A stretch of DNA of 64,000 nt from Candidatus Lloydbacteria bacterium RIFCSPLOWO2_01_FULL_50_20 (GTDB lineage Bacteria > Patescibacteriota > Minisyncoccia > Phycocordibacterales > UBA6899), in NCBI GenBank assembly GCA_001821435.1, contig MHLP01000007.1, forward strand, positions 1,620-65,619. The letters run 5' to 3'. The position numbers and the translations under genes were made by a program. The notes under the pieces are model-generated. The model ran no database searches. It saw nothing but the letters and a program-made list of their open reading frames with translations, and was not told where the DNA came from. Below, piece after piece: positions 2,607 through 22,414 of this stretch. The stretch's first letter is position 1; each line of letters starts with the position of its first letter.

Positions 2607-3824
2607 TTGTGGTATACTACCAATATTATGGAACAATCATCACCTCAGGTATATGCAACAGAACGTTTAAAAGCGGGCTTGAGTCCTGATGCGATCAAGC
2701 AGAATCTCCTTGCTGTCGGCTGGTCGGAAGAGGAGGCGAATACGGCCATCGTCGGAGGGCTTATCGCTCTCGGGGTCCCTGTTCCGCCGAACGGCGCGCG
2801 GACGGGCCACGGCAGACTCTCTTCGACCGTTGAAGTAGTGCTCAATTTCTTCTCATTTATCGCTCTTGGTGTTGTGGCGTTCGCGCTGGTGACGCTTTAT
2901 TACCAGATCATCAATTATTATTTTCCGGATCCGCTCATCATTCGTTACGGAGGCTCGGATGTCTCTTCGGAGGCAATCCATTATGCCATTGCTGCACTGA
3001 TCATCACTTTCCCGATCTATGTACTTGCCGTGCGGCTTTGGTTCAAGCGCTTTCGCGAAGATCTGGAAAAGGTGGAGACCAAGCTTACCAAGTGGCTTAC
3101 GTATCTCATACTGCTCGTCTCGGCGATCACCATTGTCGGTGACCTTATCGCGGCCGTATTTTTTCTCCTTCAAGGCGAAGTCACTCCGCGATTTTTCTTA
3201 AAGGCATTAGTTATCCTGATACTTGCGGGGATGATCTTCGGTTTCTATTTCTTAGAACGAAAAAAGATCCAATATCGCAGAGATATCCCGCGCCGCACAT
3301 TCCAGACCCTCGGATGGGTCGCGCTGGGGATCGTCCTTGTCGCGATCGTGCTCGGTTTTATTGTCGGCGGATCGCCCAGCACCGCGCGAAAGAGCGGTTT
3401 TGATACGCAGCGTGCAGATGATCTTCGAACGATAGCAAGCTGTGTCGCGAATTTCGGGATCAATCAAAAACGGCTCCCCGATACCCTTGGAGAGCTGTCG
3501 AAGAGCGGGCAATATGCATATTGTCTCTCGGGAATGGCAGATCCTGAAACGGGAATGCCGTATGAATATCGCATTGTCGTGCCTTCGGTTGTTGTCGGAG
3601 GAGTGCGCCAGGGAGAATTTGAGCTCTGTGCCGAGTTCTCGCTTCAGTCAGAAAGTGTCCCGATCGAGAAAAATGGCTATGGTTTTCCTCCAGACAAATG
3701 GAGCGAACATGGGTCGGGCAGAAACTGTGACACGGAAACGGCAAATTTGGAACGCTATCTTGATGCTCCTCTGCCGGGTGAAAGCGCAGTTCCCGCTCCA
3801 GCCATACAGTCGAGATACTATTAA
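2607..3824 (+). CDS. Multi-pass membrane protein: cytoplasmic N-terminal domain, about four TM helices, large C-terminal extracytoplasmic Cys-containing domain
   Basis: 405-aa ORF; TM segments after residue 85; the N-terminus is duplicated at 374.. Confidence 0.6.
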   Translation: MWYTTNIMEQSSPQVYATERLKAGLSPDAIKQNLLAVGWSEEEANTAIVGGLIALGVPVPPNGARTGHGRLSSTVEVVLNFFSFIALGVVAFALVTLYYQIINYYFPDPLIIRYGGSDVSSEAIHYAIAALIITFPIYVLAVRLWFKRFREDLEKVETKLTKWLTYLILLVSAITIVGDLIAAVFFLLQGEVTPRFFLKALVILILAGMIFGFYFLERKKIQYRRDIPRRTFQTLGWVALGIVLVAIVLGFIVGGSPSTARKSGFDTQRADDLRTIASCVANFGINQKRLPDTLGELSKSGQYAYCLSGMADPETGMPYEYRIVVPSVVVGGVRQGEFELCAEFSLQSESVPIEKNGYGFPPDKWSEHGSGRNCDTETANLERYLDAPLPGESAVPAPAIQSRYY

Positions 3825-3889
3825 TGTCTTATCCACATGCAGGGAGCCTGTGTTATACTTGTTCGACATTAATAAATAATCTCATCGTC

Positions 3890-4138
3890 ATGAAACCAGT
3901 TGCAATTTATACGACCGAAACCTGCGGATATTGCCGGCTTGCAAAGGAATTTTTTCAGAAAAACAACATCCAGTATCAGGAATTCAACGTCGGAACGGAT
4001 CTTGAAAAACGCAAAGAGATGATCGAGAAAAGCGGACAAATGGGGGTTCCGGTCATCGTGGTGGGGGATGATATGATCGTCGGATTCAACAAGCCGAAGC
4101 TCGAGGGACTCCTCAATATCCCCGCGGCGGTTGCATAG
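3890..4138 (+). CDS. Glutaredoxin-like protein (NrdH/Grx family)
   Basis: CGYC active-site motif in MKPVAIYTTETCGYCRLAKEFF; about 82 aa; thioredoxin-fold pattern with GVPVIVVGD. Confidence 0.75.
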   Translation: MKPVAIYTTETCGYCRLAKEFFQKNNIQYQEFNVGTDLEKRKEMIEKSGQMGVPVIVVGDDMIVGFNKPKLEGLLNIPAAVA

Positions 4139-4233
4139 GCAGAGAAGAAAATCCGTGACGACGAATGTCACCTCCTTTCCTACGTGTGGATAAAATAACC
4201 ACATACTAGTGTATATGTGCTATATTATATAAT

Positions 4234-4872
4234 ATGCGGAGATTATCCGATGAGCGACACAAGCATCTCGTTACTTTGCGAATGAGTGGCAAAAGTATTC
4301 CCGAAATCTCAAAAGAAACCGGAGTTGCAAAAACCACCGTTCTTCGCCACATAAAGGGTGTTCAAGTTCCACATAAATTTCAAACAATCCTTAGAGAAAA
4401 ACAAGGGGGGTCAAAAGATCGTGCTAAAGCCCTTCGAGTAAACATAACAGCGGAAACAGAGAAATTGGTGGGAAGTATTTCCAACCGAGATTACCTTTTC
4501 CTGCTCGTTGGATTGTATTGGGGTGAAGGCACCAAGATGGATTTCTCTGTAATTAACTCAGACCCGCTTCTTATACAAACCTTCATCCATTGCTTGAAAA
4601 CCCTAAATATAGCGAATGATCGGCTCGCTATTTCTCTGAGAGTGCATAGGGGAATTTCTATACCAGAAGCAAAAAGGTTCTGGGCTCGGACAACGGGTTT
4701 ACCGAAACAAATAATAGAGCGAGTTGAAATTATAGATGGAAAGAAGAAGGGGAAACTTCCGCACGGCATGTGTCGAGTGCGGGTGAGGTCAGGAATACGC
4801 GATCGCCTACTCATTCAAAGTGCCATAGATTTTATTGGAAAAGAATGTAATAAAGGAATAGTATCCCAATAA
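4234..4872 (+). CDS. Free-standing LAGLIDADG-like homing endonuclease (single motif) with an N-terminal HTH-like region
   Basis: Motif LLVGLYWGEGTK resembles LAGLIDADG; lower GC than the flanks; stop codon directly abuts tRNA-Arg. Confidence 0.5.
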   Translation: MRRLSDERHKHLVTLRMSGKSIPEISKETGVAKTTVLRHIKGVQVPHKFQTILREKQGGSKDRAKALRVNITAETEKLVGSISNRDYLFLLVGLYWGEGTKMDFSVINSDPLLIQTFIHCLKTLNIANDRLAISLRVHRGISIPEAKRFWARTTGLPKQIIERVEIIDGKKKGKLPHGMCRVRVRSGIRDRLLIQSAIDFIGKECNKGIVSQ

Positions 4873-9737: not shown

Positions 9738-10616
9738 TTGGAATTTTTAACGAAAAATTTCCCTAAACTTATGATCATAAATTCACCCATACGAAATGTG
9801 GGCTACAAACGAAAATTGCCTTTTTTTATTCTCGCATGTTTTGCTGTTTTGTCGGGATTCATCTCCGCCCACTTTCTATTCACGGTTGAAGCAACCACCA
9901 GTTTTCCCATAAACAGTTCGTTTGAAAATACCGCTTCTTTGGAAGATGATGCGATAGGAGGGGTTAATGATATTGTCCTTGAGACAGAAGGGGATAACTC
10001 TGTGGATAACTTGGGCATTAATGAGTCTTTTTGTCGGCAGGCGTGACTACCGAAGCGGTCTCTCAGCAACGATATTCTCTCTCAAGGACAAAGCCGCAAA
10101 ATTTATCACAAAAAATGGAGAACCAGGAGGAGAAACAGGAACCGGCTGGCACGGAGAAACTTTTTGCAGCAGAGCCGGTAACTACCGATTCGCTTGATCT
10201 TTTTACTCTTATCAATAATTCAACGACGACGATCATCGGGAACATTCAAAGCGGCGATATGACCGGAACAGGAACGAAACTCTTGAATTTGCTTGCCACC
10301 CCCTCCGATCATTGGAGAGGCTGCCCCCTTAGACGACACGATGGGGAAGAATGTTTCCGCTTCTTTTCTCGAGTCCGACCATCCGACTGCTGTCACTTTT
10401 ACCGCAAAAGTAAAAGAAGGGCTCAGTATGCTCGGTTCCGCAGTAAACCCGCGAAGACTTTCCTCTCTCGACGGGTGGGTCATCTACATTATCTTTCGGG
10501 TAGTCCTTGCCGTAGCTCTCGGACTGTTTCACAAACGTCGATGCAGCAATCTCACCGTCGAGGAAGAAGCAATCAGGGAACAAATAACCAAAACAAAGAG
10601 GTATCCACGAATATAA
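9738..10616 (+). pseudogene. Possible disrupted gene for a secreted/surface protein split over three frames (9738-10046, 10031-10663, 10293-10616)
   Basis: N-terminal signal/TM segment, then successive overlapping ORFs in different frames, the last with a C-terminal TM plus basic tail; none individually convincing. Confidence 0.25.
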
Positions 10617-10677
10617 AACATGCCGCCAGGAAAATATGCCCCACGCCCGCGAGAGATGGATAGACAGGCGGCGTGTT

Positions 10678-11886
10678 TCACTCCAGCCGCCAATTTCCGT
10701 CGGCACGGATGTCCGCGATGTCCGTCGTTCCGGAGCTATAGCGGAGCGCTCCTCCGACGGCGATCATGAGCGCGTTATCGGTGGAGAGCGCATGATCAGG
10801 AATATACAAAGAAATTCCCGGAAGTTTCTCGGCAACAGCTTCCGCGAGCATTTTTCGCAGACGTTTATTTGCGGAGACGCCTCCTCCGAGTACGATGGTC
10901 TTTGCGCCGGTCACTTCTGCCGCACGCACTGTTTTTGCGATAAGCACTTCAATGCATGCTTCCTCGAATTCCCGCGCGATGTCCGCCTTTTGCGTCTCGG
11001 CGAGCAGTCCGATCTTTTTTATAAGATACAGCACCGCAGTTTTGAGTCCCGCAAAAGAGAAATCATGATCACTGGACTGAAGCATCGGACGAGGGAGAGC
11101 AAACTTGCCGGGTGTTCCTGTCTCACCTAGGCGCGATATTTCGGGGCCTCCGGGGTAAGGAAGACCAAGCATGCGTGCCACCTTGTCGAAAGCTTCACCC
11201 ACCGCATCGTCCCGTGTTTCGCCGATCACTTCGTATGCACCCCAGTCATGCATAAGCACAAGCTCCGTATGTCCGCCGGAAACCAAGAGTCCGAGTAGGG
11301 GGAATGTTGCCGGCGCAAATTTATACCGGACATCTTCTCGCTCATTCCGCTTTTTTTCGCGCGAAGATGTCTCCGGAGCGATCCTCGTCAGAAGCGGTGA
11401 GAGTAGGTGACCCTCCATGTGGTTGACGGGTATAACGGGAATTTTCCATATTAATGACAGCGCTTTGGCGAAATTGAGACCAACCCAAAGCGCAGGCTCA
11501 AGTCCCGGTCCTCGGGTCACCGCTATCGCATCAAAGGGCGGACGGTCGACGTGCGGGATCTCCGTAATGAATTGTGCGAATAATTCCGGCTCATGATCGA
11601 GAATATCCCGGAAATCTTTTCTGAGCGGACTTTCGATGACATGCCGGCTTGTTTTTTTATAGAATCCCGCATCTTGTAATGTTTTGATGAACAGCGGAAC
11701 GAGCGAGCGTGCATGTTCCCGTTTTGCCAGCATAGGGAATACTCCGCCGTACTCTTTGTGTACGGCGATCTGCGAAAGCGTGTTATCGGCGAGGACGCGA
11801 AAAGTGACCGATGGAAGAGTGCCGTCAGTTTCAATGATGGAGAGCGCAGTCTCGTCGCAAGATGTCTCTATGCTCAATATGAACAT
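10678..11886 (-). CDS. tsaD: tRNA N6-adenosine threonylcarbamoyltransferase TsaD (Kae1/Gcp family), with an insertion
   Basis: N-terminal MFILSIETSCDETALSI signature; HxxH-type metal motif (NHMEGHLLS); 402 aa. Confidence 0.85.
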   Translation of the reverse strand: MFILSIETSCDETALSIIETDGTLPSVTFRVLADNTLSQIAVHKEYGGVFPMLAKREHARSLVPLFIKTLQDAGFYKKTSRHVIESPLRKDFRDILDHEPELFAQFITEIPHVDRPPFDAIAVTRGPGLEPALWVGLNFAKALSLIWKIPVIPVNHMEGHLLSPLLTRIAPETSSREKKRNEREDVRYKFAPATFPLLGLLVSGGHTELVLMHDWGAYEVIGETRDDAVGEAFDKVARMLGLPYPGGPEISRLGETGTPGKFALPRPMLQSSDHDFSFAGLKTAVLYLIKKIGLLAETQKADIAREFEEACIEVLIAKTVRAAEVTGAKTIVLGGGVSANKRLRKMLAEAVAEKLPGISLYIPDHALSTDNALMIAVGGALRYSSGTTDIADIRADGNWRLE

Positions 11887-12219
11887 GATCGCCGTCGGAG
11901 GAGCGCTCCGCTATTTCGGCAGTTACCATTAGAGCATAATTGCGAATAAATAGACAATTTACCGTGAAACACGCGAATGGAAACCAACGGTTCATTCAAT
12001 CATCATCTTCCTTGTGTTATAGTCTGAAAGTATTTGGCCGCTTAGACTGCAGATCGGGAATACGCATGAGAAAGAAAATCGTGTTTTCTTTCTCACCTGG
12101 AACGACGCCATCGCGTCCGGATACAGACCATGCAAAAAATGCAAACCTGTGCCATAGCTACGTTTGAACCGTAACTATTTCAGTTACGTTTTTATGCTTA
12201 AGTTTTGACTCGATGCGGC

Positions 12220-12305
12220 GGAGGAGGTGAGATTCGAACTCACGGTCCCCTTACGAGGACACTGCATTTCGAGTGCAGCGCACTAGACCACTATGCGACT
12301 CCTCC
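12220..12305 (-). tRNA. tRNA-Ser (anticodon CGA), class II long variable arm, no CCA encoded
   Basis: Reverse-complement fold: acceptor GGAGGAG/CTCCTCC, anticodon loop cuCGAaa, variable arm TCCTCGTAAGGGGACC, T-loop GTTCGAATC. Confidence 0.8.
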
Positions 12306-13193
12306 AAGAAAACGTTCCAAACGCTCGGAGTGTTTGAGATTACTCGTTCCAATTTCTTTGAAATATCTTACAATATTTTCTCTTTTCCGCAAATAGATCG
12401 ATCGATGTGTGCCAACTCCGCCAGTTGGATTATAATCTAGTGCCAGCAATATCTCGATGATATCTTTCCTTAGAGATTCGGAGGCACTGCTGAAGAGTAG
12501 TCCAATTCCTTGATAGCGTCGACCCTTTATTACACGAAAATCTTGGTACACCGATCCGTCCGTATCGAAAAGTCCCCGCAGAAAGCTTTTTTTGTAATTT
12601 TTATTTTGTGTTATCCACAGGGGAATATGCAGATTGCCAGCCAACTTATTTCCTTTGGGCATTCCCTTTTTGTGTAAAAAATTCACAAGATTTTTTGCGG
12701 TCACTACCACGGTAAGCGCATTCTGCCCCTTCTTTTTTCTGATGCGAGCGCGAAGACCAAAAAGGAGATAGATCATTTTTTGCACAAACTCCGCATGTTC
12801 ACTATCCGTTTTAGAATTAGTCGTTACACTCATCCAATATGTAGCGAGATGTCCATCGCCAATAAGGATGCCAAGGAATTCAGCGAGCAATCGTGAGTTT
12901 CTCGGGCGACGAATTTGAGTGAGCTGTTTGAATTGGGTTTTTCTTAAGTGATGAGTCCGTAGGGAATTTAATCCTCCCTTGCGCCGTCCTTCTTCTGTGC
13001 CAGGATTTCCATATAAACGAATGCGCGAATATCCACCCTCACTTGCAATATGCCTCAAGCGTGTTGCGCGAAATTCATTCATAAATTTCATGCTATATTT
13101 CGAGTAGCAATTTGTCAACCGGTCTACAGCAGGAAACTTGTTTTTTGTGCCGCATGATGTTAGTATCACAACCATCAGGCCCATCGTCTTCAT
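12291..13193 (-). CDS. Double-motif LAGLIDADG homing endonuclease (free-standing)
   Basis: Two LAGLIDADG motifs: LLAEFLGILIGDGHL and FLRGLFDTDGSVY; AT-rich; the stop codon overlaps the 5' end of tRNA-Ser and the start lies about 36 nt from tRNA-Glu. Confidence 0.8.
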   Translation of the reverse strand: MKTMGLMVVILTSCGTKNKFPAVDRLTNCYSKYSMKFMNEFRATRLRHIASEGGYSRIRLYGNPGTEEGRRKGGLNSLRTHHLRKTQFKQLTQIRRPRNSRLLAEFLGILIGDGHLATYWMSVTTNSKTDSEHAEFVQKMIYLLFGLRARIRKKKGQNALTVVVTAKNLVNFLHKKGMPKGNKLAGNLHIPLWITQNKNYKKSFLRGLFDTDGSVYQDFRVIKGRRYQGIGLLFSSASESLRKDIIEILLALDYNPTGGVGTHRSIYLRKRENIVRYFKEIGTSNLKHSERLERFLGGVA

Positions 13194-13228
13194 GGCGTAA
13201 ATGGAGGCTGAATGCCAGTTTTTAGACT

Positions 13229-13300
13229 GGCCCTATCGTCTAATGGTTAGGACGGCGCCCTTTCACGGCGTAAATCGGGGTTCGACTCCCCGTGGGGTCA
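13229..13300 (+). tRNA. tRNA-Glu (anticodon TTC)
   Basis: Acceptor GGCCCTA/TGGGGTC with two G-U pairs, anticodon loop cuUUCac, T-loop GGTTCGACTCC; resembles E. coli tRNA-Glu. Confidence 0.75.
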
Positions 13301-13348
13301 CCTAAAGCAACAAAACGGCTCGCAAGAGCCTGGAATCCGTTTCTACAT

Positions 13349-14962
13349 TTATATTCCTGTTTTTTCAGACAGTCTAAGTTCGGAAAAGATTATTCGAGCG
13401 ATCCGATCTTTTTCCAGACCATTTGCCGAACGGTAATATGTAGCACCGGTTTTCAGCAGTTCGGAAAGTTTTACGACATCCTTGATCGTCTCGCTCATTG
13501 AACCGTCAGACGCCTCCTCAGCGGCACGTAACCCCTCGAGCTCAAGACTAATACGCGCCTCTTCGGCCACGATTGCCTCCGCACTATAGGCACCCGTGCG
13601 TAGGAGCAGAAGCCTGTTTGCGGTCAGATATGCGAGGTCCTCGCGGAGTTTTTTCTCAAGACGCTCTGCGTTATCGAGGTCGTTGAGCCGCTTCGTTTCC
13701 AAGACGGCGATGCCCGTGCTCGCGCGTGTCTCTATATATTCGAGCTCCGCATCGGTAAAAGACAGCGCATCTATAAGAGTACCGATCTTTTCGCCGATGA
13801 ATGCGAGGGTGAAGCTCTTGGTCGAATTCGAGCATCCCGGTGCGCATCGCGCCCCGTAGTAAATCATTCCTTTCTGCTCATAGGGGGTGTAGACACGTCC
13901 GCAAAGTACACAGCGAATCATTCCTCGCAATGGATGTTCGAGAACTTCGGCGTAGTGGGCGCTGATCTTCTTGCGTCGCAGCTGTAGCTGGACTCTGCCG
14001 AACACTTCATCAGTGACAAGAGCCTCATGGCTGATGCTTTGCAGCAGAACGCCATCATTCCCAGGCACCTTGCCCGCATAGAATGGGTTGGTCAGGATCT
14101 TATGGATCGAGTTGAAGGTAGGAATCCGCGGCACGGGGTCGATCTTGAGCCGGATATCGTCCTCTTCCTCAGCGAGGATCTCCTCATCGGTTCGCCGCCG
14201 ACGCATCGGCGGCATCGTCAACCCCCGTGCAATCGCCCTTCGCGCCAAGTCGGCTAAGGTCCACTGTCCTGTTGCGGCGAGTTCAAAGAGCTCTTTAATG
14301 ATCGGCGCGCGTACGGGGTCAATGGGTTTGTGCGCCATGTCGCCCGTGTTGAGATATCCGACCGGTGCGCGATGTGTGCAGATACCTCGTGCACGATTGC
14401 TGCGCATCGTTAGGGTAACCTTCTCGCGCGTGACCCGCGAGTGGTGCTCGGCAAACATACCATCGATATCCATATGCAGCTCGCCCGCGCTCGTCTTGTC
14501 GTAGTGCGCAAGCGTGAAGCGGATATCGATGCCGGCCTTCATAAGCTTGCGGAGTATTGTGTCGTCTCCTTTGTTTCTGCTCGCCCGATCCCAGCAGAGG
14601 AAAATGACACCCTTGAAATAGCCTTTGCTCAGCAACTGCACAAGTCGGTGGAACTTCGGCCGCTCCACCCGATAACGTACGGTATTGTTGTAGCCGAACG
14701 TGAGTCTGAGGTCTTCCTTGAAACCCGAATGTCTTTCCGAAATGATCCCGTCGGTCGCGAAGCTCTGGAGCGTGATCGGCGCGATCGCAAGGTGCTCGCG
14801 GTATGCAAAGCGGGCATTCTCGGACTTCTGATATTTGATCGAATTCTTCTGGTTGGCTGTGTCGTCCGTGCTCTTGCGGTTGTATATGAGAAAGTTGTTG
14901 CGGTACTTGCCGCTCTGGATCTCTTTCAGTACCTGCTTTTCATGTTCTGCACTCCTCGTCAT
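13349..14962 (-). CDS. Large serine recombinase/integrase (resolvase catalytic domain, recombinase domain, zinc ribbon, coiled-coil)
   Basis: N-terminal catalytic region YNRKSTDD (Ser nucleophile); zinc-ribbon CVLCGRVYTP...CAPGC; 537 aa; 3' end lies 48 nt from tRNA-Glu. Confidence 0.8.
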   Translation of the reverse strand: MTRSAEHEKQVLKEIQSGKYRNNFLIYNRKSTDDTANQKNSIKYQKSENARFAYREHLAIAPITLQSFATDGIISERHSGFKEDLRLTFGYNNTVRYRVERPKFHRLVQLLSKGYFKGVIFLCWDRASRNKGDDTILRKLMKAGIDIRFTLAHYDKTSAGELHMDIDGMFAEHHSRVTREKVTLTMRSNRARGICTHRAPVGYLNTGDMAHKPIDPVRAPIIKELFELAATGQWTLADLARRAIARGLTMPPMRRRRTDEEILAEEEDDIRLKIDPVPRIPTFNSIHKILTNPFYAGKVPGNDGVLLQSISHEALVTDEVFGRVQLQLRRKKISAHYAEVLEHPLRGMIRCVLCGRVYTPYEQKGMIYYGARCAPGCSNSTKSFTLAFIGEKIGTLIDALSFTDAELEYIETRASTGIAVLETKRLNDLDNAERLEKKLREDLAYLTANRLLLLRTGAYSAEAIVAEEARISLELEGLRAAEEASDGSMSETIKDVVKLSELLKTGATYYRSANGLEKDRIARIIFSELRLSEKTGI

Positions 14963-15104
14963 GCTCGGTTGTCGGTTTTATGATCTCGCCATTGATAATC
15001 GTGTATCCCTCCGATAACAGACGGTCGTGTACGCTGCGGAGCGCTTCGCCCAACTCAACGAGCGATGCGATGGTGTCATCGCTAAACGTCTGTTCCTCGG
15101 GACA

Positions 15105-15165
15105 CAAAGAGGGGCAACGAGAAGAGTCAGTGTTGCTACACAAAGACCCTCGTTGCCCCTCTTTG
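15105..15165. repeat. Perfect 17-bp inverted repeat (caaagaggggcaacgag / ctcgttgcccctctttg) with a 27-nt spacer, 140 nt upstream of the recombinase start
   Basis: Read directly; the spacer contains a cacaaaga direct repeat; candidate recombination site or regulatory hairpin. Confidence 0.6.
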
Positions 15166-15475
15166 GGTACAAGCTTGTTCTGCTCTTTTTGATCTTCGTG
15201 TAGCTCCTTCATAGTACAAAATGTGTCGCGCCCCGCAAGTCACTCCCTGGGGATCGACCGTCAGCCCAGCGTAGTCAAAGGAGACCGGTAATCCAAAGAC
15301 GCTGAAACGTGACTGGCAAGTCGCTCGCCGCTTGTTGGCCCAGCTCCGTCCAGACTTCCGATGTCAAATGTTTCGGCCTTAGGACTCGAGTCGCGACACG
15401 CGTTGCGCATGTTGTGAAGTAGGTACACCAGGGCAATCGTTATACGATTAGGGGCATATTCATAACCCCTCTCGT

Positions 15476-18400
15476 ATGGAGGAACATCGAGGGCTCTTTT
15501 TATTTATCAGCACACAGCGGCGTCAGAGTGCGCATCTGGTCGCACTCATCGTGGTCAGCATAACTTTGCTCATTCCCACGATCGCGTTCGCAGCAAACAA
15601 CGACCCATTTCGCAGTGGTCGTGAAGCAGTCAACCCCAAGCAGTCGGCTGGTGTAGGTCAATCGACCGGTGCCATGACCTACAGCTACCCCCTCGTCATT
15701 CCTCCGGGGCGAAATGGCGTACAACCCAACCTCTCCCTTAACTATTCGAGCGATGACAAACGCCCAGACAGTATTTTTGGATACGGCTGGTCGATGACGC
15801 TTCCATATATAGAACGTGTCAACAAACTGGGAACCAATAATTTATATAACCAAGATACTGCACACACCTTCTTCACCTCGTCGATTTCAGGGGAATTATT
15901 GCCGGTGGTTAATTCCACACCGATTGGCGGAAGTTTTCTGGGGATGATCCTGGGCGCTTCACCACTTGCGCTTCTTGAAACCTCCGAAGAATCAAATACC
16001 ACCCAAACGCAGAGCGAGCCGACTGAACAAAGTGCCAGCCCAGCGCCTGATCCAACGATTGTGAGCGATGAGATTGCTCAGTCATTCCATACATTTGCCG
16101 ACACGTTCTCGACTGCTTTTGTCTATCACCCAAACGAAGAAGGAGAGTGGAACAGTGCTCGCGAGCGAGGTACTCATGATGCAAAATTAGGCATCCCAGG
16201 ATTTCCCGTGGCCGGCAAGTCTCTGTCGCTCGTAAGCGTAATACCCAACCCCCTCACCCCCGCCCTCGAAAACCTTCCGGCAACGGAACGCGCCACCCTC
16301 AAGGGCGAAGCCATCGCGCAAATAGGCAGCATCCCTAAGACGCTCCACGGTGATTATTGGATCGAGGTCACCGCCATGAACCCCATCGAGGGCGGCGTCG
16401 AATTGTTCGCCCGCGCCTGGGATACAAATGACGATCCGATCGGCTTCGGCCAAGACGGTACTGTCGAGACCGAACGGTTCCGCATCTTTAACCCTCCTAT
16501 CCTGGTTGACGATCCCAATGGAACTATCGTCCGCACTTGGACCGATGAAATAACCAACGAAGTAAAGACTCGCACATTGCGAGAAGACCCCGTTCAAGCG
16601 ATCACCGAAACGCTTTTACACACCATCAGTCTCGTCGGAAGAGAAGACACGCAAATAAACGCCGGAAGCGTCGGAAACACAACTGATATTTTTTATCCCA
16701 GTACCGACGGTCGTGCGTACCGCATCCCCGCATCTGAAACATTTGCCACGATTCGCGCGGGTGCGGGTCAAGGTTCTCCCACTGGAGAGACGTCTGCTGC
16801 CGCCGTGACGCTTCAAGCATCGGGAACCAGTAATCAGTACAACGTGCTCACTCGCGGATTCTTTCTGTTTGACACATCTCCAATAGGCACTGACAGCATT
16901 TCATCTTCCACGCTCTCTCTTGTGGCTTCCAATACTTCTTTCTTCGACGACTTCACCGATAGTGTGGGAGTGGTTGCCGCAACCACGGCGTCAGATAGTG
17001 ACGTCGCCAACTCTGACTTTGAAGGAACAGTGGGGAATACGACAAGGTGGGCAACCGACAGAACAATTGCCAGTCTTGCCCATGACGATGCGACCTATAA
17101 CAGTTGGACATTGAATGCGACGGGGATTGCCGGGATCAACAAGACAGGGATCACCAAGATCGGCCTCAAGTCCGCCCTTGACATTGATAACACCGCACCG
17201 ACATGGGGAAGCGAGCTTGCATCGAATGTCATATTCTATTTTGCAGACAATGAAGGAGCAGGAACAACCGCTGACCCAAAATTAGTTGTTGTGCATTCCG
17301 CAGTTCCACAGGGCCCCACTAGCCTTCTGCTTGACGATCTGACCAATCCCTCGAATATCGCCACGAGCTCCCCGTACTTCTCGGCGATCCACGCGAACGC
17401 TTCCACCACCGCCTTAGCTACCAGCTACCAGATCCAAGTGGACACCGCCGGCACCTTCACCGCTCCCTATTGGGATTCCGGGAAGCGCACCCTCTCCTCC
17501 TCCACTCCGGCAGGCATGCGCTCACCAAACATCTACGCCACCAGCACCTTCGCACTCGATGGCACCACCTACTATTGGCGTCTCCGCTTTTACGATCAGA
17601 TGGGGGGAGTGGGGGACTATTCCACCGCGACGTCGACATTCAGGATGCGTTCGGCATCGACGGTGCTCCAAGACCTGAATTACACCTACGACGCGGTCGG
17701 GAACATCATCACCATCCAGGATTATTCCGGCAACAACGCTGCTGCCTCGACCACGTACACCTATGACAATCTCTATCGCTTAACGAGGGCGAGCAGCACG
17801 GATGCCGTCCTCACCAACTGGCTCCAGACGTATGCGTATGATGACCTCGGGAACATCACAAGCAAGAGCGATGTGGGGAGTTACACCTACGCGGGTACCG
17901 GCTGGGCCAATCCGCATGCGCCGACGACGGTGAATGGGGTGACGTATGGCTATGACGCAGCGGGGAATCTCACAAGTGCGGGAGCTGCCAGCTACTTCTG
18001 GAATTATCGCAACCGACTGACGGACACCAACGTCAATTCCACCACTACCCATTATCAATACGACCACCTTGATCAACGTGTTCAACAAGACGTGAAGATC
18101 GGAGCCTCCGCGACTTCAAGCACAATTTATTGGAGTAAACTTTTTGAGACCAAGGGGGCGACCACGACTTTGTATGTGTTTCTGCCCAATGGTGAACTCT
18201 TGGCGACGGTGGAGGGGAATGGGAGTGCGACCTCGACGTACATCGCACATACCGATCATCAGGGTTCGACTAATGTGATGAGTGATAAGAATGGAAATCT
18301 TGCACAACTTGCCACGTATTATCCGTTTGGGGGGAAGAGGAATAATGAACTTTCATCAAATGGGTTCCAAGAAAAGAGAGGATTCATAGGTCAATATGAA

Positions 18401-19255
18401 GATGCCGTCGTCCAACTCTCGTACCTAAATGCGAGATATTACGATATCACCCGAGGCCAATTTGCAAGTGAAGACCCACTAGTACAGAAGATCGGCCTTG
18501 ACCTCAAGGAAGTACAGCGGCTTCTTCTTGATCCACAGTTACAGAATTACTATTCTTATGCTCGCAATAATCCGATCAATTTAAGTGATCCGAGTGGAGA
18601 GGCAACCATCGGTCAGTTACTATCGCAGATCAGCGCGCTACTCACACAATTAAGTGCGGCTATAACGAAGCAATACTCTAGTACTGTGTCATCTGTTTCG
18701 AGCACCCTGCAAACAGTGAGTGCGGCAAGTACACAACAGGTATCGAAGGCAGTGAATACTGTTTACAACTTTCATGGTGGCGCAGGATTAACATTTGGCG
18801 GTGAGACTTCAGTTGGCGTACGGTCAGGAGGTGCTGGTGCTGGCGTCACTGCGCAACAATCCTACTCCTTTGGGGTTTTTAAGGACAAGGGATTCAAGTT
18901 CAGTATCGGCGGTTTTAAGAGTTACGGAAACGCATTTGCGGCAGGAGATACTGAAGTCACTTCTGCGGAATTGAATATGTGTCCTGTACTCACGGAACGA
19001 CCAGTTATATTTGGGCTTTCATACGGTGTTGGTGTCGGTGGCTTTGTTGCGCCTAACGCTGGCAGTGTTAATGATTTGTTGGGAACATCAAATTCAGTTT
19101 CTTATAATGCTCCATTTGGTAGCTTTCAATATTCCTTGGGAGAACAGCCGACGTATGCCTTGACCTACGGGCCACACCTATCAGGCGTAACCCCAGGCGC
19201 CTCGTACACTCAACTCCCTGTATCCAATGAACATTGGTTTAGTACTAGCCCTTAA
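15476..19255 (+). CDS. Secreted RHS/YD-repeat polymorphic toxin, 1259 aa: signal peptide, N-terminal and middle domains, a short YD-repeat block, an RHS repeat-associated core, and a Gly-rich C-terminal domain of unknown function
   Basis: YD repeats (YTYDAVGN, YAYDDLGN, YGYDAAGN); core ATYYPFGGKR and NARYYDITRGQFASEDP; canonical boundary YSYARNNPINLSDPSGE before the C-terminal domain (about aa 1046-1259). Confidence 0.8.
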   Translation: MEEHRGLFLFISTQRRQSAHLVALIVVSITLLIPTIAFAANNDPFRSGREAVNPKQSAGVGQSTGAMTYSYPLVIPPGRNGVQPNLSLNYSSDDKRPDSIFGYGWSMTLPYIERVNKLGTNNLYNQDTAHTFFTSSISGELLPVVNSTPIGGSFLGMILGASPLALLETSEESNTTQTQSEPTEQSASPAPDPTIVSDEIAQSFHTFADTFSTAFVYHPNEEGEWNSARERGTHDAKLGIPGFPVAGKSLSLVSVIPNPLTPALENLPATERATLKGEAIAQIGSIPKTLHGDYWIEVTAMNPIEGGVELFARAWDTNDDPIGFGQDGTVETERFRIFNPPILVDDPNGTIVRTWTDEITNEVKTRTLREDPVQAITETLLHTISLVGREDTQINAGSVGNTTDIFYPSTDGRAYRIPASETFATIRAGAGQGSPTGETSAAAVTLQASGTSNQYNVLTRGFFLFDTSPIGTDSISSSTLSLVASNTSFFDDFTDSVGVVAATTASDSDVANSDFEGTVGNTTRWATDRTIASLAHDDATYNSWTLNATGIAGINKTGITKIGLKSALDIDNTAPTWGSELASNVIFYFADNEGAGTTADPKLVVVHSAVPQGPTSLLLDDLTNPSNIATSSPYFSAIHANASTTALATSYQIQVDTAGTFTAPYWDSGKRTLSSSTPAGMRSPNIYATSTFALDGTTYYWRLRFYDQMGGVGDYSTATSTFRMRSASTVLQDLNYTYDAVGNIITIQDYSGNNAAASTTYTYDNLYRLTRASSTDAVLTNWLQTYAYDDLGNITSKSDVGSYTYAGTGWANPHAPTTVNGVTYGYDAAGNLTSAGAASYFWNYRNRLTDTNVNSTTTHYQYDHLDQRVQQDVKIGASATSSTIYWSKLFETKGATTTLYVFLPNGELLATVEGNGSATSTYIAHTDHQGSTNVMSDKNGNLAQLATYYPFGGKRNNELSSNGFQEKRGFIGQYEDAVVQLSYLNARYYDITRGQFASEDPLVQKIGLDLKEVQRLLLDPQLQNYYSYARNNPINLSDPSGEATIGQLLSQISALLTQLSAAITKQYSSTVSSVSSTLQTVSAASTQQVSKAVNTVYNFHGGAGLTFGGETSVGVRSGGAGAGVTAQQSYSFGVFKDKGFKFSIGGFKSYGNAFAAGDTEVTSAELNMCPVLTERPVIFGLSYGVGVGGFVAPNAGSVNDLLGTSNSVSYNAPFGSFQYSLGEQPTYALTYGPHLSGVTPGASYTQLPVSNEHWFSTSP

Positions 19256-19304
19256 ATATCAAGGGAGATAAAAACTTTATTCATTTAATTCTGAACTGAA
19301 AAAC

Positions 19305-19670
19305 ATGTTAGAAAATATTATGATTGCTTGCTTTTTCCTTGCCGGATTTGATTATCTATTTTTTGGTAAAGTGCTAATTACTTACCAGTTCACCGAAACC
19401 GAATTGAGGGTGATCTTATTAAAATTATTTCCACTACACATTATTCCCCTCAAAATAGTGGAGAAAGTTGAAAAGATTTCATACCCCAAAATGTTTGCGG
19501 GAATGGCAATTTATGTCAGCGCATTTCGTTCACGCGCATTTGGTGGCGGTGTTCTCATTAGAACAAGTACCAAGCATGGTAATGAAGTCGTTGTGACCCC
19601 CCCCCGTGTTGACGAATTCATTTCGGAAGTTAAGAGACGCGTGAGAGAAAAAACCAGAAGAGAAATATAA
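19305..19670 (+). CDS. Candidate immunity protein (small membrane-anchored protein immediately downstream of the toxin C-terminal domain)
   Basis: Position immediately 3' of the RHS C-terminal domain; AT-rich; N-terminal TM segment (IMIACFFLAGFDYLFFGKVLI). Confidence 0.45.
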   Translation: MLENIMIACFFLAGFDYLFFGKVLITYQFTETELRVILLKLFPLHIIPLKIVEKVEKISYPKMFAGMAIYVSAFRSRAFGGGVLIRTSTKHGNEVVVTPPRVDEFISEVKRRVREKTRREI

Positions 19671-19746
19671 CGCCCCCATGCTCCGCATCGCTGAAAAATT
19701 CCCACTCACCGAATCTCTTTGGAGCCGCTATCGCTCGCAACGAAAC

Positions 19747-19775
19747 GGGGACAGCCACCATTAATTGACTGATGG
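19747..19775. repeat. REP-like element (ggggacagccaccattaattgactgatgg)
   Basis: Shares the GGGGACAG core with the REPs flanking the RAYT gene at 48.5-49.3 kb; near-identical copy at 20070..20093. Confidence 0.55.
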
Positions 19776-19836: not shown

Positions 19837-20091
19837 ATGCCCAGACAAGCCAGAGTCGCCGTGGGGGATGTGGTCTATCATGTGATTAACCGCGCCAACG
19901 GCCGCGTGCGGATATTCCACTCCGACAAAGACTACCAACATTTTGAATCACTGCTTGAGGAAGCAAAAGAACTCACTGGTATGCGTATCCTCGCGTACGT
20001 GATCATGCCGAATCACTGGCATCTCGTGCTCTATCCAAGTCAAGACACTGATCTTTCTGGGGGGAAAATGGGGACAGCCACAATTGACTGA
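19837..20091 (+). pseudogene. Truncated HUH Y1 transposase (RAYT/IS200-like), N-terminal 84 aa only, lacking the catalytic Tyr
   Basis: Aligns with 48600..49232 (VYHVINRANGR..., HUH motif MPNHWHLVLYP) but stops before the YQGRY region; flanked by REP-like copies. Confidence 0.65.
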
Positions 20092-20093
20092 CC
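20070..20093. repeat. REP-like element (ggggacagccacaattgactgacc)
   Basis: Direct near-copy of 19747..19775. Confidence 0.55.
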
Positions 20094-20685: not shown

Positions 20686-20733
20686 ACACCAATCTTGTAA
20701 TTATTCGTTAGAATAGTTGCATATGACGGTAAT

Positions 20734-20877
20734 GGGGACAGTCACGATTAAATAGCAAAGAGTATGGTCTAATATTTCCATTAATTCTCTTGCAATATGT
20801 TACGATAGCGGATAGCGAATGCGGTCGCACGCGAATAATTATGACACGTGTTTATGAAATCAATCGTGACTGTCCCC
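20734..20877. repeat. Pair of perfect 16-nt inverted REP-like repeats (ggggacagtcacgatt ... aatcgtgactgtcccc) enclosing about 112 nt (BIME/MITE-like)
   Basis: Read directly; same GGGGACAG core as the RAYT-flanking REPs. Confidence 0.6.
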
Positions 20878-22414
20878 ATTCTCCATTCTCCTCATTCTCC
20901 CGATGTTTTGCGGCGAGCGCTGCGGCGACGGTCCATGCCTGGATCTCCTGAGGAGGCTGCTCGATACGGTTCTTTACGCCACGTGATTCATCCCAGATGT
21001 CCACAATCCGTTCGTTCAATGTTGGTTCGGCATCGTCACCGCCTTGAGCAAATTCAGGAAACTTATTGAACTTACTGACGACCGCGAACATGCGCTCTTC
21101 GAGGTCGTCGGCCGCGGCAATATGCCCGTGTTTTCTTAGGCCGCATGCGATCATATATGAATCCCACAGCCACACGCTTCCATTGTGATATGCACCGGGC
21201 CGGAAACGGGGCTCATTTTTCGCAAGCGTCCGTATTCCGCTCGCAGAGAGCATAAGGGGAGACAAGAGTGTAGTGACGATCGCGGATCTTTTTTTGACGG
21301 TATCCAGGTCGTCGCCGATGAGCATGTCCGAAGAAAGCAGATGCCCCATGTTCGAGGTACGGATCGCAAGCTGACGGGGATTCCCTTGGCTGTCCCGGTC
21401 TGTTCCGAGGGCAAAAAAACTTTCTCCATTCTTCTCTTCGACCCACATTTCACTGAACACAGATGATCGCAATTTTTCCGCCCGCGATAGGAGGTCATCG
21501 GCGACCGAGGCGGCAAAACGTTCATCCCTCGGCATTTTTTCAAAGATCTTCCGATACAATTTACTTGCCGAGAGAAGCGCGTCATACGCATAACCTTGCA
21601 CCTCGACGGAAGCGATACCCCGCGCATGGTTCGCTATTGCACCGTCCGCGTGGAAATAGGAGTCGTTGGAGTCTTTCCATGCTTGGTTCAAAATGCCGTT
21701 CGGATTTGCGCGGCAAAATTCGACGAATCCTTGCGGGTTCGCGTCCATGCGTTTTTTGATCCAGTTCACTGCGCCGACAAGCGCGTCAAGAATTGTCCTC
21801 CTCTCTCCGTCTTTGTTCGTGAATATCCGTCCCAATATGCACCTGTTTTCTTGAGCGATGTATTCCGTGATCAGTTTCACGAAGAGCGGCGTCGTGTCGA
21901 CTGAGCCGTAATAGGGGAATTCCCAGCCGCGCTCCTCACGCAAAAATTTTCCGATCGCGGACCGATGATCGCGATATTCATGAAGGATGCGGCCAGGTTC
22001 TTCTTCGGCGTGAGACTCGTATCTCGTCCCCTGAAACTTCGCGAGCCGTATAATCGTCATCCGGGCAAGCAGAGGAAATTGCGGAAGAAGAAATGAAGAG
22101 ACGACAAGCGAGTCTCTTCCAAAAAATGCCGAAAAGAGATTTAGTTCCTCGACATCCTCGTTGGCTTCGGTGGCAAGTGCCGCGAAAGGCGGGCCGTGTT
22201 TTCCTATTTCACCGGGAGTCTTTGCGTGCGTCAGACGCATCAACTCCGTGAGTGCATCCGGTCGTTTTGTTGGTGTAACGATCAAAGGTTTTTCGACTGC
22301 GATGACCCGTTCGTTCGGAAGCAGGTAGGGGATAAGATCGGCAACTGCTTTCGTCAGATCGGTTTCTTCGGTAGCTGGTGTTTCATTCATGTTGCCGTGA
22401 GTTGATTGCGTCAA
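20852..22414 (-). CDS. Glycoside hydrolase with an (alpha/alpha)6-barrel, glycogen debranching enzyme/amylo-alpha-1,6-glucosidase-like
   Basis: 520 aa; GDE C-terminal-like motifs (NGSVWLWD, GYAYDA, acidic residues); family assignment from memory. Confidence 0.5.
   Translation of the reverse strand: MTQSTHGNMNETPATEETDLTKAVADLIPYLLPNERVIAVEKPLIVTPTKRPDALTELMRLTHAKTPGEIGKHGPPFAALATEANEDVEELNLFSAFFGRDSLVVSSFLLPQFPLLARMTIIRLAKFQGTRYESHAEEEPGRILHEYRDHRSAIGKFLREERGWEFPYYGSVDTTPLFVKLITEYIAQENRCILGRIFTNKDGERRTILDALVGAVNWIKKRMDANPQGFVEFCRANPNGILNQAWKDSNDSYFHADGAIANHARGIASVEVQGYAYDALLSASKLYRKIFEKMPRDERFAASVADDLLSRAEKLRSSVFSEMWVEEKNGESFFALGTDRDSQGNPRQLAIRTSNMGHLLSSDMLIGDDLDTVKKRSAIVTTLLSPLMLSASGIRTLAKNEPRFRPGAYHNGSVWLWDSYMIACGLRKHGHIAAADDLEERMFAVVSKFNKFPEFAQGGDDAEPTLNERIVDIWDESRGVKNRIEQPPQEIQAWTVAAALAAKHRENEENGEWGQSRLIS

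Follow-up and report, generated by a model that had tools for sequence, protein, structure and literature searches.

The window analysed, a 64-kb stretch of DNA from Candidatus Lloydbacteria (CPR/Patescibacteria; a tiny-genome groundwater organism), contains an RHS toxin gene, ORF 15476..19255 (+), which encodes a protein of 1259 aa. An ORF of 121 aa (19305..19670, +) starts 49 nt downstream of it. Both ORFs have the coordinates and lengths given in the original prediction, and all three RHS-core motifs named there (ATYYPFGGKR, NARYYDITRGQFASEDP and YSYARNNPINLSDPSGE) are present in the 1259-aa translation. The features of the locus are as follows, with residue numbers referring to the 1259-aa protein.

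13229-13302, tRNA-Glu, adjoining the serine recombinase gene
13349..14962 (-), large serine recombinase with Pfam Resolvase and Recombinase domains
15476..15592 (+), Sec-type signal peptide, residues 1-39, with predicted cleavage between AFA and AN, read from the sequence
15662..15859 (+), N-terminal piece of an SpvB/TcB-type domain, residues 63-128 (PF03534 SpvB, E 4e-9)
16265..17302 (+), ~345-aa phage-tail-like module, residues 264-609 (similarity to protein P0020)
17318..17632 (+), Ig/FN3-like domain, residues 615-719 (PF25788 Ig_Rha78A_N)
17678..18316 (+), YD/RHS-repeat strip, residues ~735-947, ~9 hairpins (PF05593, TIGR01643)
18317..18601 (+), RHS core, predicted aspartyl autoprotease plug, residues 948-1042 (TIGR03696)
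18602..18766 (+), Ser/Thr/Gln/Ala-rich linker, predicted helical, residues 1043-1097 (AF2 model, low confidence)
18767..19255 (+), Gly/Ser-rich tip domain, predicted all-beta, residues 1098-1259 and stop codon (rare-family searches, AF2)
19305..19670 (+), 121-aa immunity-like ORF with an N-terminal hydrophobic helix and a possible bacterial PH-like domain
18374..19670 (+), recently exchanged cassette comprising the last ~76 aa of the core, the tip and the 121-aa ORF (comparison with contig L001, GC-content)

The serine recombinase is a possible island integrase. One relative (P0005) directly adjoins a 538-aa serine recombinase, a mobile-element context; the two recombinases are only 21% identical. 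A search for att-like repeats found none.

Architecture of the 1259-aa protein

The predicted signal peptide is supported by a strong N-terminal hydrophobic segment (KD19 maximum 2.64, residues ~17-42), and relatives P0002-P0004 keep a hydrophobic leader followed by A(T/A)NNDPF(R/H)SGREA. The region of ~700 aa between the signal peptide and the YD repeats, described earlier as unassigned, proved to be partly assignable to the SpvB, phage-tail-like and Ig-like segments, and about half of it is a module common to a CPR-phage tail protein. The SpvB match covers only profile positions 3-66 of 287, and no profile matches to FG-GAP/VCBS propeller or TcdB mid domains were found in the protein. The Ig-like match has an E-value of 3e-6 and a score of 27.8 bits (cut-off 27.4).

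The module at residues 264-609 is 39% identical (E 2e-59) to residues 7-345 of P0020, whose gene immediately follows a tape-measure-sized and an SPP1_Dit gene on a 51-kb phage-like contig. Judged from sequence, P0020 is a CPR-phage tail-tip protein that has this module in common with the Lloydbacteria toxin, and the module is presumed to bind cell surfaces. It has no Pfam or PHROG family and was found in 22 loci, nearly all in CPR genomes, mostly within proteins of 2200-3150 aa, some of which possess full SpvB, FG-GAP and TcdB-mid domains. Such a distribution, together with an SpvB domain reduced to 64 of 287 profile positions, would suit a gene in decay, derived from a full-size CPR RHS toxin (2200-3100 aa) and now non-functional and lacking most of the shell. 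This explanation is very improbable, since all 1259 codons form one uninterrupted frame, selection is strongly purifying (pN/pS 0.13-0.14; JC-corrected omega 0.08) and the short architecture recurs. It is found in the diverged relatives P0002 (1124 aa) and P0003 (1313 aa), with 39-49% identity, and in an even shorter form, with a signal peptide, in Saccharibacteria RHS proteins of 523 and 534 aa. The distant relatives P0008 and P0011-P0019 have the full SpvB/FG-GAP/TcdB-mid architecture.

The YD repeats were matched by PF05593 (RHS_repeat) in four stretches within residues 721-1042 (E 2e-11) and by TIGR01643 (18.4 bits, cut-off 15.8); a Pfam profile search found no further YD repeats in the N-terminal 730 aa. 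The block is indeed unusually short (~210 aa), although the earlier count of about six repeats gives way to ~9 hairpins by eye, or four Pfam repeats. Detection of the RHS core by profile had been set beforehand as a test that could refute the prediction, and TIGR03696 (Rhs_assc_core) detected it at residues 948-1041 (E 2.3e-15, 56.9 bits with a cut-off of 32.5, profile positions 1-75 of 76), immediately before the variable tip. Both Asp-Pro motifs of the core are present, SEDP with D1000 and DPSGE with D1038. Two such motifs define the protease in RHS autocleavage, where the Asp of the second motif (DPxGL) is catalytic (PMC8636562), and the core at residues 948-1042 is predicted to be an aspartyl autoprotease. 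The YD strip and the 95-aa core are together shorter than the ~800 or more aa needed to close a barrel around the tip. The strip is too short for a cocoon; at about a quarter of the canonical Rhs shell, it is probably a scaffold for the autoprotease and not a closed capsule.

The tip and the downstream ORF as an exchangeable cassette

In fourteen relatives the same boundary motif is followed by an unrelated tail of 158-229 aa, one of these being a barnase-type RNase, and relatives with the common N-terminus and core, whose unrelated tails measure 165-229 aa, have different small downstream ORFs. The combination of one RHS core with alternative tails and partner ORFs in other genomes, proposed as a check of the original prediction, was thus found. 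Nearly all toxin tips of this lineage lack an assignment, eight of the nine sibling tips scanned having no Pfam family. The Saccharibacteria RHS-HNH protein of 523 aa has a YD/core block 65% identical (E 2e-122) to residues ~770-1042, and its neighbour bears a colicin/pyocin-DNase tail with a DUF2750 partner. Nuclease tips of this kind must reach the cytoplasm, hence the short-RHS chassis is not restricted to surface-acting tips.

In a comparison with the orthologous contig L001, identity at third codon positions rises from 0.31 upstream of toxin residue ~966 to 0.67 downstream (Fisher p 7e-8, for a changepoint chosen post hoc). The pS value is 0.76 for the upstream core, 0.40 for the tip and 0.30 for the 121-aa ORF, and similarity to L001 ends right after the stop codon of this ORF. 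The GC-content drops from ~0.55 to 0.39-0.47 across 18374..19670; it is 0.39-0.40 at positions 19000-19750, as against 0.52-0.58 in the body of the RHS gene. The end of the core, the tip and the 121-aa ORF form an exchangeable cassette with sharp ends. The unrelated tails of the relatives and this exchanged cassette argue for a bona fide polymorphic toxin/immunity pair, a reading of the sequences that we consider highly probable. Orphan core, tail or immunity modules were not found elsewhere in the window by tblastn; orphan modules, for which a downstream search had been proposed, do occur in the related loci L021 and L012.

The 121-aa ORF is coding and under purifying selection. Its orthologue in L001 also has 121 aa, with no indels, and pN/pS is 0.20 in frame versus 0.83 and 0.79 off frame; a non-coding ORF, named earlier as a refuting outcome, is thereby rejected, and the original reading withstood each of the refuting conditions proposed with it. 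The ORF is represented by only two clusters among 5.8e9 proteins. It is AT-rich, as described, but its N-terminal helix is only moderately hydrophobic (KD 1.85, residues 7-25). Right after this helix, residues 26-112 gave a sub-threshold match to positions 2-73 of 74 of the bPH_4 profile (PF06713; E 0.011, 16.2 bits, cut-off 22.9). The AF2 model is unusable (pLDDT 40) and no PDB match was found. A search for a ribosome-binding site and a promoter of the ORF gave nothing convincing, with site counts at chance level. The ORF is immunity-like: a putative cognate immunity gene that is co-inherited with the tip.

Family, fold and possible action of the tip

The tail beyond DPSGE comprises 217 aa (1043-1259), which corrects the earlier figure of 214 aa. 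It has no match in Pfam, NCBIfam, PADLOC or PHROG even at an E-value of 10, none in PDB, and none to profiles of Ntox/Tox domains, pore-forming colicins, Tox-WTIP or enzyme families. The earlier statement that it cannot be assigned to a known family holds in these profile searches for toxic and non-toxic domains alike. An exhaustive phmmer search of 1.84e9 representative proteins yielded five matches, and an HMM of the tip family added two members, the RHS tail of L021 and a fragment in L012, an orphan inside an RHS array. The family is also found behind the RHS cores of P0041 and L021 (2578 aa). These sequence matches indicate a real, very rare, new family, RHS-borne in three lineages.

The AF2 model of the tail has helices at tail residues 3-24 and 30-56, of low confidence; in L021 a similar S/T/Q-rich stretch is placed after the beta-domain, not before it. 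The tip itself is modelled with ~9 strands (pLDDT 52, pTM 0.48) and is predicted, with low confidence, to be all-beta. A Foldseek search with the tail model gave nothing significant in PDB or BFVD, and because of this and the low confidence of the model, a barrel fold is tentative. With the low-confidence tip model, Foldseek placed VapB at rank 38 (E 0.94). Assignment of the tip to the Vap/COG5400 beta-barrels by sequence was rejected (hhalign probability 0.12% and 0.09%).

If the beta-domain were a ligand-binding barrel (avidin/Vap-like), the protein could serve an epibiotic CPR cell as a surface adhesin or for attachment to its host, with the 121-aa ORF an unrelated small membrane protein. 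This is quite improbable. The tail lies exactly at the variable position past the autoprotease boundary, where relatives carry nucleases and immunity genes; the tail and the ORF are inherited together, in a cassette whose ends are sharp and whose GC-content is foreign; orphan copies are located in RHS toxin arrays; and homology to Vap is unsupported at a probability of 0.1%.

A second alternative is that the tip is a cytoplasm-acting enzyme of unrecognised fold (e.g., a nuclease, NADase or ADP-ribosyltransferase), bound directly by the 121-aa protein, whose hydrophobic N-terminus would be incidental. Most characterised RHS tips are enzymes, the sibling CPR short-RHS proteins bear HNH, colicin-DNase and barnase-type tips, and the fold assignment of the tip is weak. 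Against this stand the composition of the tip (17.5% Gly, 12% Ser, few charged residues), the absence of a match to any enzyme family and the conservation pattern: in the seven family members the only invariant residues are G, G, A and G, with His, Asp, Glu, Lys, Arg, Cys and Ser all absent from the invariant positions. Further, the partner ORFs of family members, wherever sequence or annotation can be examined, are small hydrophobic or predicted membrane proteins. An enzymatic tip is therefore unlikely, albeit less so than an adhesin. The partner ORFs have no detectable homology to one another, which is unusual for cognate immunity proteins of homologous toxins.

The tip is under constraint relative to its orthologue (pN/pS 0.13), and the tail has no hydrophobic segment of transmembrane grade (KD maximum 1.32). 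Our best guess, at somewhat less than even odds, is a membrane-perturbing, non-enzymatic tip. The membrane-acting effector hinted at in the original prediction has gained circumstantial support and is still something that we infer.

Relation to known RHS systems and proposed function

WapA proteins exceed 2000 aa, with long YD arrays and repeats that bind the cell wall, and the tips known from them are enzymes, for example tRNases. The Lloydbacteria protein resembles these toxins of monoderm bacteria (Bacillus subtilis WapA/WapI; Streptococcus suis, PMC12704120) in having a signal peptide in place of a T6SS/T7SS adaptor, RHS repeats, a core bounded by DPxG, a polymorphic toxin at the C-terminus and, immediately downstream, an immunity gene, here putative. 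It differs in its size (1259 aa), its ~210-aa YD strip, its phage-tail-derived module and its non-enzymatic-looking tip. The TcdB/TcaC class of polymorphic toxins combines a signal peptide, SpvB, a beta-propeller and RHS (Zhang et al. 2012, PMC3482391). Together with Tc-toxin TcB/TcC, this class has the same order of signal peptide, SpvB-type N-terminus (PF03534), RHS repeats and core autoprotease. Unlike Tc toxins, the Lloydbacteria protein retains only the small SpvB piece, lacks the propeller and TcdB mid domains and has a shell far too short for the cocoon that defines them.

T6SS Rhs effectors such as Photorhabdus laumondii Rhs1 (PMC8636562) likewise carry an aspartyl-protease plug at the C-terminus, containing two Asp-Pro motifs, release a polymorphic tip and exchange core-end/tip/immunity cassettes; tip release in the Lloydbacteria protein is predicted. 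In Rhs1 the shell strip runs from residue 420 to 1262 (~840 aa), with the toxin enclosed in it (PMC8636562), whereas the present strip is about a quarter of that length, and coupling through PAAR, prePAAR or VgrG is absent. The Asp motifs are spaced by 33 residues, versus 17 in Rhs1, and P1 is Glu instead of Leu. Apart from having no sequence relationship to the tip, the Rhodococcus equi Vap/COG5400 beta-barrels (PDB 4cv7, 5aeo, 5uc0) are not RHS-borne and lack immunity partners. Pairs of a non-catalytic tip and a small immunity protein embedded in the membrane, as predicted here, are known from pore-forming colicins, CdiA-CT of E. coli EC93 and Tox-WTIP (Zhang et al. 2012). Those tips are helical and hydrophobic, unlike the predicted all-beta Lloydbacteria tip, which has no Pfam match to any of the three and lacks the two transmembrane helices of Tox-WTIP. 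The type of system is well known; the unfamiliar parts are the short chassis and the Gly-rich tip.

The whole locus is best explained as a Sec-exported RHS toxin with its immunity gene, built on a miniaturised chassis and bearing a membrane-acting tip. We assign this reading a probability of about 0.65, a blend of the greater confidence in the cassette and the lesser confidence in a membrane-acting tip. After export, the phage-tail-like module and the Ig domain would bind the target cell surface. The aspartyl protease of the RHS core would cut after DPSGE (residue 1042) and free the tip. The Gly-rich beta tip, with no catalytic residues, would then damage the target cytoplasmic membrane from outside, and the membrane-anchored 121-aa protein would shield the producer's own membrane.

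More speculatively, and with rather low probability, the protein may represent a cocoon-less "mini-RHS" chassis of CPR epibionts. Its phage-tail receptor-binding module would target the surface of hosts or rivals, the ~300-aa YD/core block would be only a self-cleaving release device, and a new class of Gly-rich beta-barrels would insert into the target membrane from outside, possibly permeabilising hosts for nutrients, while small membrane immunity proteins of diverse kinds would counter it.

CPR/Patescibacteria are ubiquitous epibionts, most of them uncultured, whose means of attacking or exploiting other cells are poorly characterised. The locus shows that polymorphic-toxin logic of the classical kind is present in them, with cassette exchange and, in relatives, orphan modules, and that an RHS core can be borne by a chassis much too short for the toxin-enclosing cocoon that is regarded as defining RHS function. 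Should the short YD/core block be a release module only, the understanding of RHS proteins would change; if the Gly-rich tip is a beta-type membrane toxin, a new class of effectors would be added.

An RHS toxin with a short YD/core block

Both open reading frames named in the original prediction were confirmed in the window, and the motifs quoted for the larger one were all found in its translation. The features of the region are the following.

Features of the toxin region (window positions)
12217-12305, tRNA-Ser
12291-13193 (-), 300-aa free-standing LAGLIDADG-type homing-endonuclease-like ORF (PF14528, E 6e-14), its 3' end overlapping tRNA-Ser
13229-13302, tRNA-Glu
13349-14962 (-), large serine recombinase, divergently oriented
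15476-19255 (+), RHS toxin, 1259 aa
19305-19670 (+), small downstream ORF, 121 aa
19743-19769, 20066-20092, 20730-20756 and 20860-20884, AATGGGGACAGyCAC repeat copies
19837-20091, truncated Y1/REP-associated tyrosine transposase-like ORF, 84 aa

The toxin is 100% identical to the deposited "hypothetical protein A2942_01090" (Candidatus Lloydbacteria, RIFCSPLOWO2_01_FULL), whose source is a CPR (Patescibacteria)/Parcubacteria genome from metagenomic data. The predicted signal peptide corresponds to a strongly hydrophobic N-terminal leader ending in AFA, followed by AN, which is kept in relatives. The RHS core is recognised by NCBIfam TIGR03696 (residues 948-1041, E 2.3e-15, well over the cut-off), and Pfam RHS_repeat matches four stretches within residues 721-1042. 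The C-terminal tail, or tip, is present after the core boundary, with a length of 217 aa past DPSGE and not the predicted 214 aa. The N-terminal region of about 700 aa, described earlier as unassigned, is assignable in part: a piece at residues 63-128 matches only positions 3-66 of the 287 in the SpvB/TcB N-terminal profile, residues 264-609 form a module shared with a phage-like contig, and an Ig-like domain occupies residues 615-719. The earlier observation is confirmed with these minor corrections.

A search with the full-length protein returned 36 relatives. In 14 of them the same N.Y.YA..NP.....DPxG boundary is followed by mutually unrelated tails of 158-229 aa, and small ORFs abut the toxin stop codon at the loci of the siblings, so that the same core does occur with alternative tips in other genomes. 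Eight of the nine sibling tails scanned against Pfam have no family; the ninth is a barnase-type ribonuclease. No orphan modules were found in the window.

The Saccharibacteria contig CAYRXD010000005 (5232-9930) carries an array of two RHS proteins, 523 and 534 aa long, that bear signal peptides; their YD/core block is 65% identical to that of the window toxin (E 2e-122). One tail is an HNH domain (E 4.5e-7), the other a colicin/pyocin DNase (E 2.4e-4), and a DUF2750 partner (E 2.3e-22) comes next. With such tails on so similar a block, the short YD/core block is validated as a carrier of genuine toxin domains. These mini-RHS toxins (~525 aa) are the shortest complete RHS toxins among those examined.

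A second arrangement is found on Patescibacteria contig JAZJYZ010000001 (locus L021), where a full-size RHS toxin of 2578 aa and its partner ORF precede an orphan RHS-core/tail fragment, which is followed by a partner of its own. In the region 12987-15876, the orphan fragment, 468 aa long with a Gly-zipper-like tail, lies after the toxin and its 172-aa two-TM partner. The fragment's 152-aa ORF combines two TM helices with a weak match to bPH_4 (E 0.09), and is a second TM and PH-like candidate immunity protein. Gly-zipper-like tails without a Pfam family also recur in five relatives (P0002, P0005, P0006, P0009 and P0011), with the pattern …C.GP..A..G.G.G..G… followed by …LP…G.LP.FGT.AF..G.HT…; they probably make up a further family of membrane-active tips in CPR RHS toxins, likewise uncharacterised.

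The YD strip of the window toxin comprises ~210 aa, together with a 95-aa core. In the structure of Rhs1, a Photorhabdus laumondii T6SS effector, the shell strip runs from residue 420 to residue 1262, with the protease plug closing it (PMC8636562). By this comparison of lengths, a closed cocoon is very unlikely in the window toxin, and we infer that its YD/core block serves only as autoprotease and scaffold. The two Asp motifs (D1000 and D1038) are kept, although their spacing is wider than in Rhs1 and Glu stands in the Leu position.

The tip domain and its membrane-type partners

The tip had no match in Pfam, NCBIfam, PADLOC or PHROGs even at E 10, nor among PDB sequences, and Foldseek searches of its model against PDB and BFVD gave nothing significant. 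No close relatives of the tail were found in genome and metagenome contigs with the single-protein tail query. A word-indexed protein search with the 217-aa tail missed even its own 100%-identical parent, probably owing to low-complexity words, while an exhaustive HMMER search recovered an orthologous fragment with 89% identity, P0038 (phmmer E 1e-116); therefore, word-index negatives on Gly/Ser-rich queries are unreliable. The exhaustive phmmer search of 1.84 billion representatives gave five matches: this orthologue, three marginal ones (E 3e-5 to 6e-4) and P0042 (E 9.7e-4), which was set aside as probably due to chance, its similarity covering only a short Gly-rich stretch in a repetitive protein. 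In the fragment P0041, one of the marginal matches, a homologous Gly-rich domain follows the fragment's own RHS core boundary. A family HMM built from these sequences scored 19.8 bits against the tail of the full-size L021 toxin, over the entire beta-domain, and 24.7 bits against a truncated orphan copy in the Saccharibacteria array. The Gly-rich tail of relative P0012 looks alike by eye, but gave a BLASTP E of 2.6 and no match to the HMM. The tip therefore represents a genuine but very rare family, RHS-borne in three independent lineages.

The 121-aa ORF matched only itself and its orthologue among 5.8 billion proteins, and had no match among PDB sequences. Its N-terminal helix is moderately hydrophobic (KD 1.85), a full-length match to bPH_4 stays sub-threshold (E 0.011), and the AF2 model is unusable (pLDDT 40). 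There is no homology to the TM and weak-bPH ORF of the L021 orphan cassette. The partners of other tip-family members are likewise without homology to the 121-aa ORF or to each other.

Partners of other members of the tip family
P0041: 120-aa DUF5684 protein, overlapping the P0041 stop codon
L021 toxin: protein of 172 aa, strongly hydrophobic in two segments, starting 2 nt past the toxin
Orphan tip copy of the Saccharibacteria array: hydrophobic ORF of ~109 aa, after the copy
P0040: DUF3592 two-TM protein, about 650 nt away
P0039: 104-aa ORF, 3 nt after P0039; outside the membrane-type tally

DUF5684 proteins are presumably membrane proteins, and all partners whose sequence or annotation was examined are small hydrophobic or membrane-type proteins. 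The main argument for membrane-directed action of the tip is this recurrence of membrane-type partners, together with a tip lacking catalytic residues; both suggest it circumstantially. The earlier hint of a membrane-acting effector has thus gained circumstantial support, and the mechanism of the tip itself is something we infer.

Exchange of the tip cassette and the phage-shared module

On the 1.7-kb contig of P0038 (L001), the 121-aa ORF also lies directly downstream. The two copies have the same length and no indels, and pN/pS is 0.20 in the ORF's own frame vs 0.83 and 0.79 in the other two (JC-corrected omega 0.165); the toxin tail gives 0.13. Such purifying selection agrees with the predicted coding status: the small ORF is a real gene, and it is part of a cassette. 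Synonymous divergence is uneven: pS reaches saturation in the upstream core (0.76) and drops to 0.40 over the tail and 0.30 over the ORF. A changepoint in third codon positions falls at toxin residue ~966 (window nt ~18374), with third-position identity of 0.31 before and 0.67 after it (Fisher p 7e-8, for a breakpoint chosen post hoc), and the two contigs are unrelated past the stop codon of the small ORF. Taken together, 18374-19670, which runs from the last part of the core through the tip to the ORF, behaves in this comparison as a recently exchanged cassette, one breakpoint of which lies inside conserved core-coding sequence. The pattern is that of classical rhs tip replacement. The GC-content falls from ~0.55 in the gene body to 0.45-0.47 in the tail and 0.39-0.40 in the small ORF. 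Promoter and terminator scans gave chance-level results only.

Over residues 264-609 the toxin shares 39% identity (E 2e-59) with the N-terminus of P0020, an 872-aa protein encoded at 10001-12619 of a 51-kb phage-like contig (Logan SRR15237804). A tape-measure-sized gene and a Dit gene directly precede the P0020 gene. This slot is the usual position of the tail-tip or receptor-binding protein. The module, which belongs to no Pfam or PHROG family, is common to the toxin and P0020, so CPR phages and CPR RHS toxins share it; it is probably a receptor-binding module. A scan of species-representative genomes found it at 22 loci, almost all in CPR (Paceibacterota, Saccharibacteria, Kaiserbacteria, Sungbacteria, Peribacteria) with a few outlier MAGs; most encode proteins of 2200-3150 aa, and six have a recognisable RHS boundary and tail. 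The CPR-typical module is also present at L014, L017, L019 and L022, in MAGs labelled Brocadia, Planctomycetota and Nanoarchaeota, which may be due to contamination during binning, to phage sequence or to genuine transfer.

In the window toxin the module lies N-terminal to the YD repeats. In P0007, P0010 and P0012 it separates the last YD repeats from the core "HTDHLG" motif, in P0008 it interrupts a full SpvB/FG-GAP/TcdB-mid architecture, and in most CPR genomes (L008-L029) it sits deep inside the 2200-3150-aa proteins. Given such differing positions, it is a mobile domain insertion within RHS proteins.

Genomic neighbourhood and proposed mode of action

The gene pair is flanked by housekeeping genes on both sides (a class I tRNA synthetase, TsaD and tRNAs upstream; a GDE-like glycosidase, tRNA-Val and an S41 peptidase downstream), with tRNA-Glu and the serine recombinase immediately upstream. 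The homing-endonuclease-like ORF sits between tRNA-Ser and tRNA-Glu. The gene of relative P0005 likewise adjoins a serine recombinase (3249-4865) in a mobile-element-like neighbourhood (L005) with DUF932, PD-(D/E)XK and OLD-TOPRIM genes. At only 21% identity between the two recombinases, a shared mobile element is not established. The search for an att-like duplication of the 3' end of tRNA-Glu was negative. An island is a plausible reading of the toxin region.

Just downstream of the cassette, the truncated transposase-like ORF (PF01797, E 9e-9; NF047646, E 1e-7, profile positions 3-73 of 146) is flanked by the repeat copies in what looks like a decayed REP/RAYT-type element. The repeat, AATGGGGACAG(C/T)CAC..ATT, is ~19-27 nt long and occurs in direct and inverted copies, one pair being perfect (19/19); copies also surround a 185-aa ORF without a family.

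The evidence best supports a WapA-like RHS polymorphic toxin that is exported by Sec and paired with cognate immunity; its family-level identity is secure. The protein would derive from the SpvB-RHS ("TcdB/TcaC") class of Zhang et al. 2012 (PMC3482391), with propeller and shell stripped away; the phage-tail module would retarget it, and the new tip would arm it. The tip's action would probably be non-enzymatic and membrane-directed, a mechanism to which we give somewhat less than an even chance. A 2487-aa RHS toxin with an immunity gene has been mentioned in passing for a Saccharibacteria genome (PMC6031116); the literature search found no description of the tip family or of the short chassis. 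The polymorphic toxin/immunity cassette is real, well formed and of a type already known. Three features make it unusual: the miniature YD/core chassis, the apparently phage-tail-derived module, and the rare, non-catalytic-looking tip with membrane partners.
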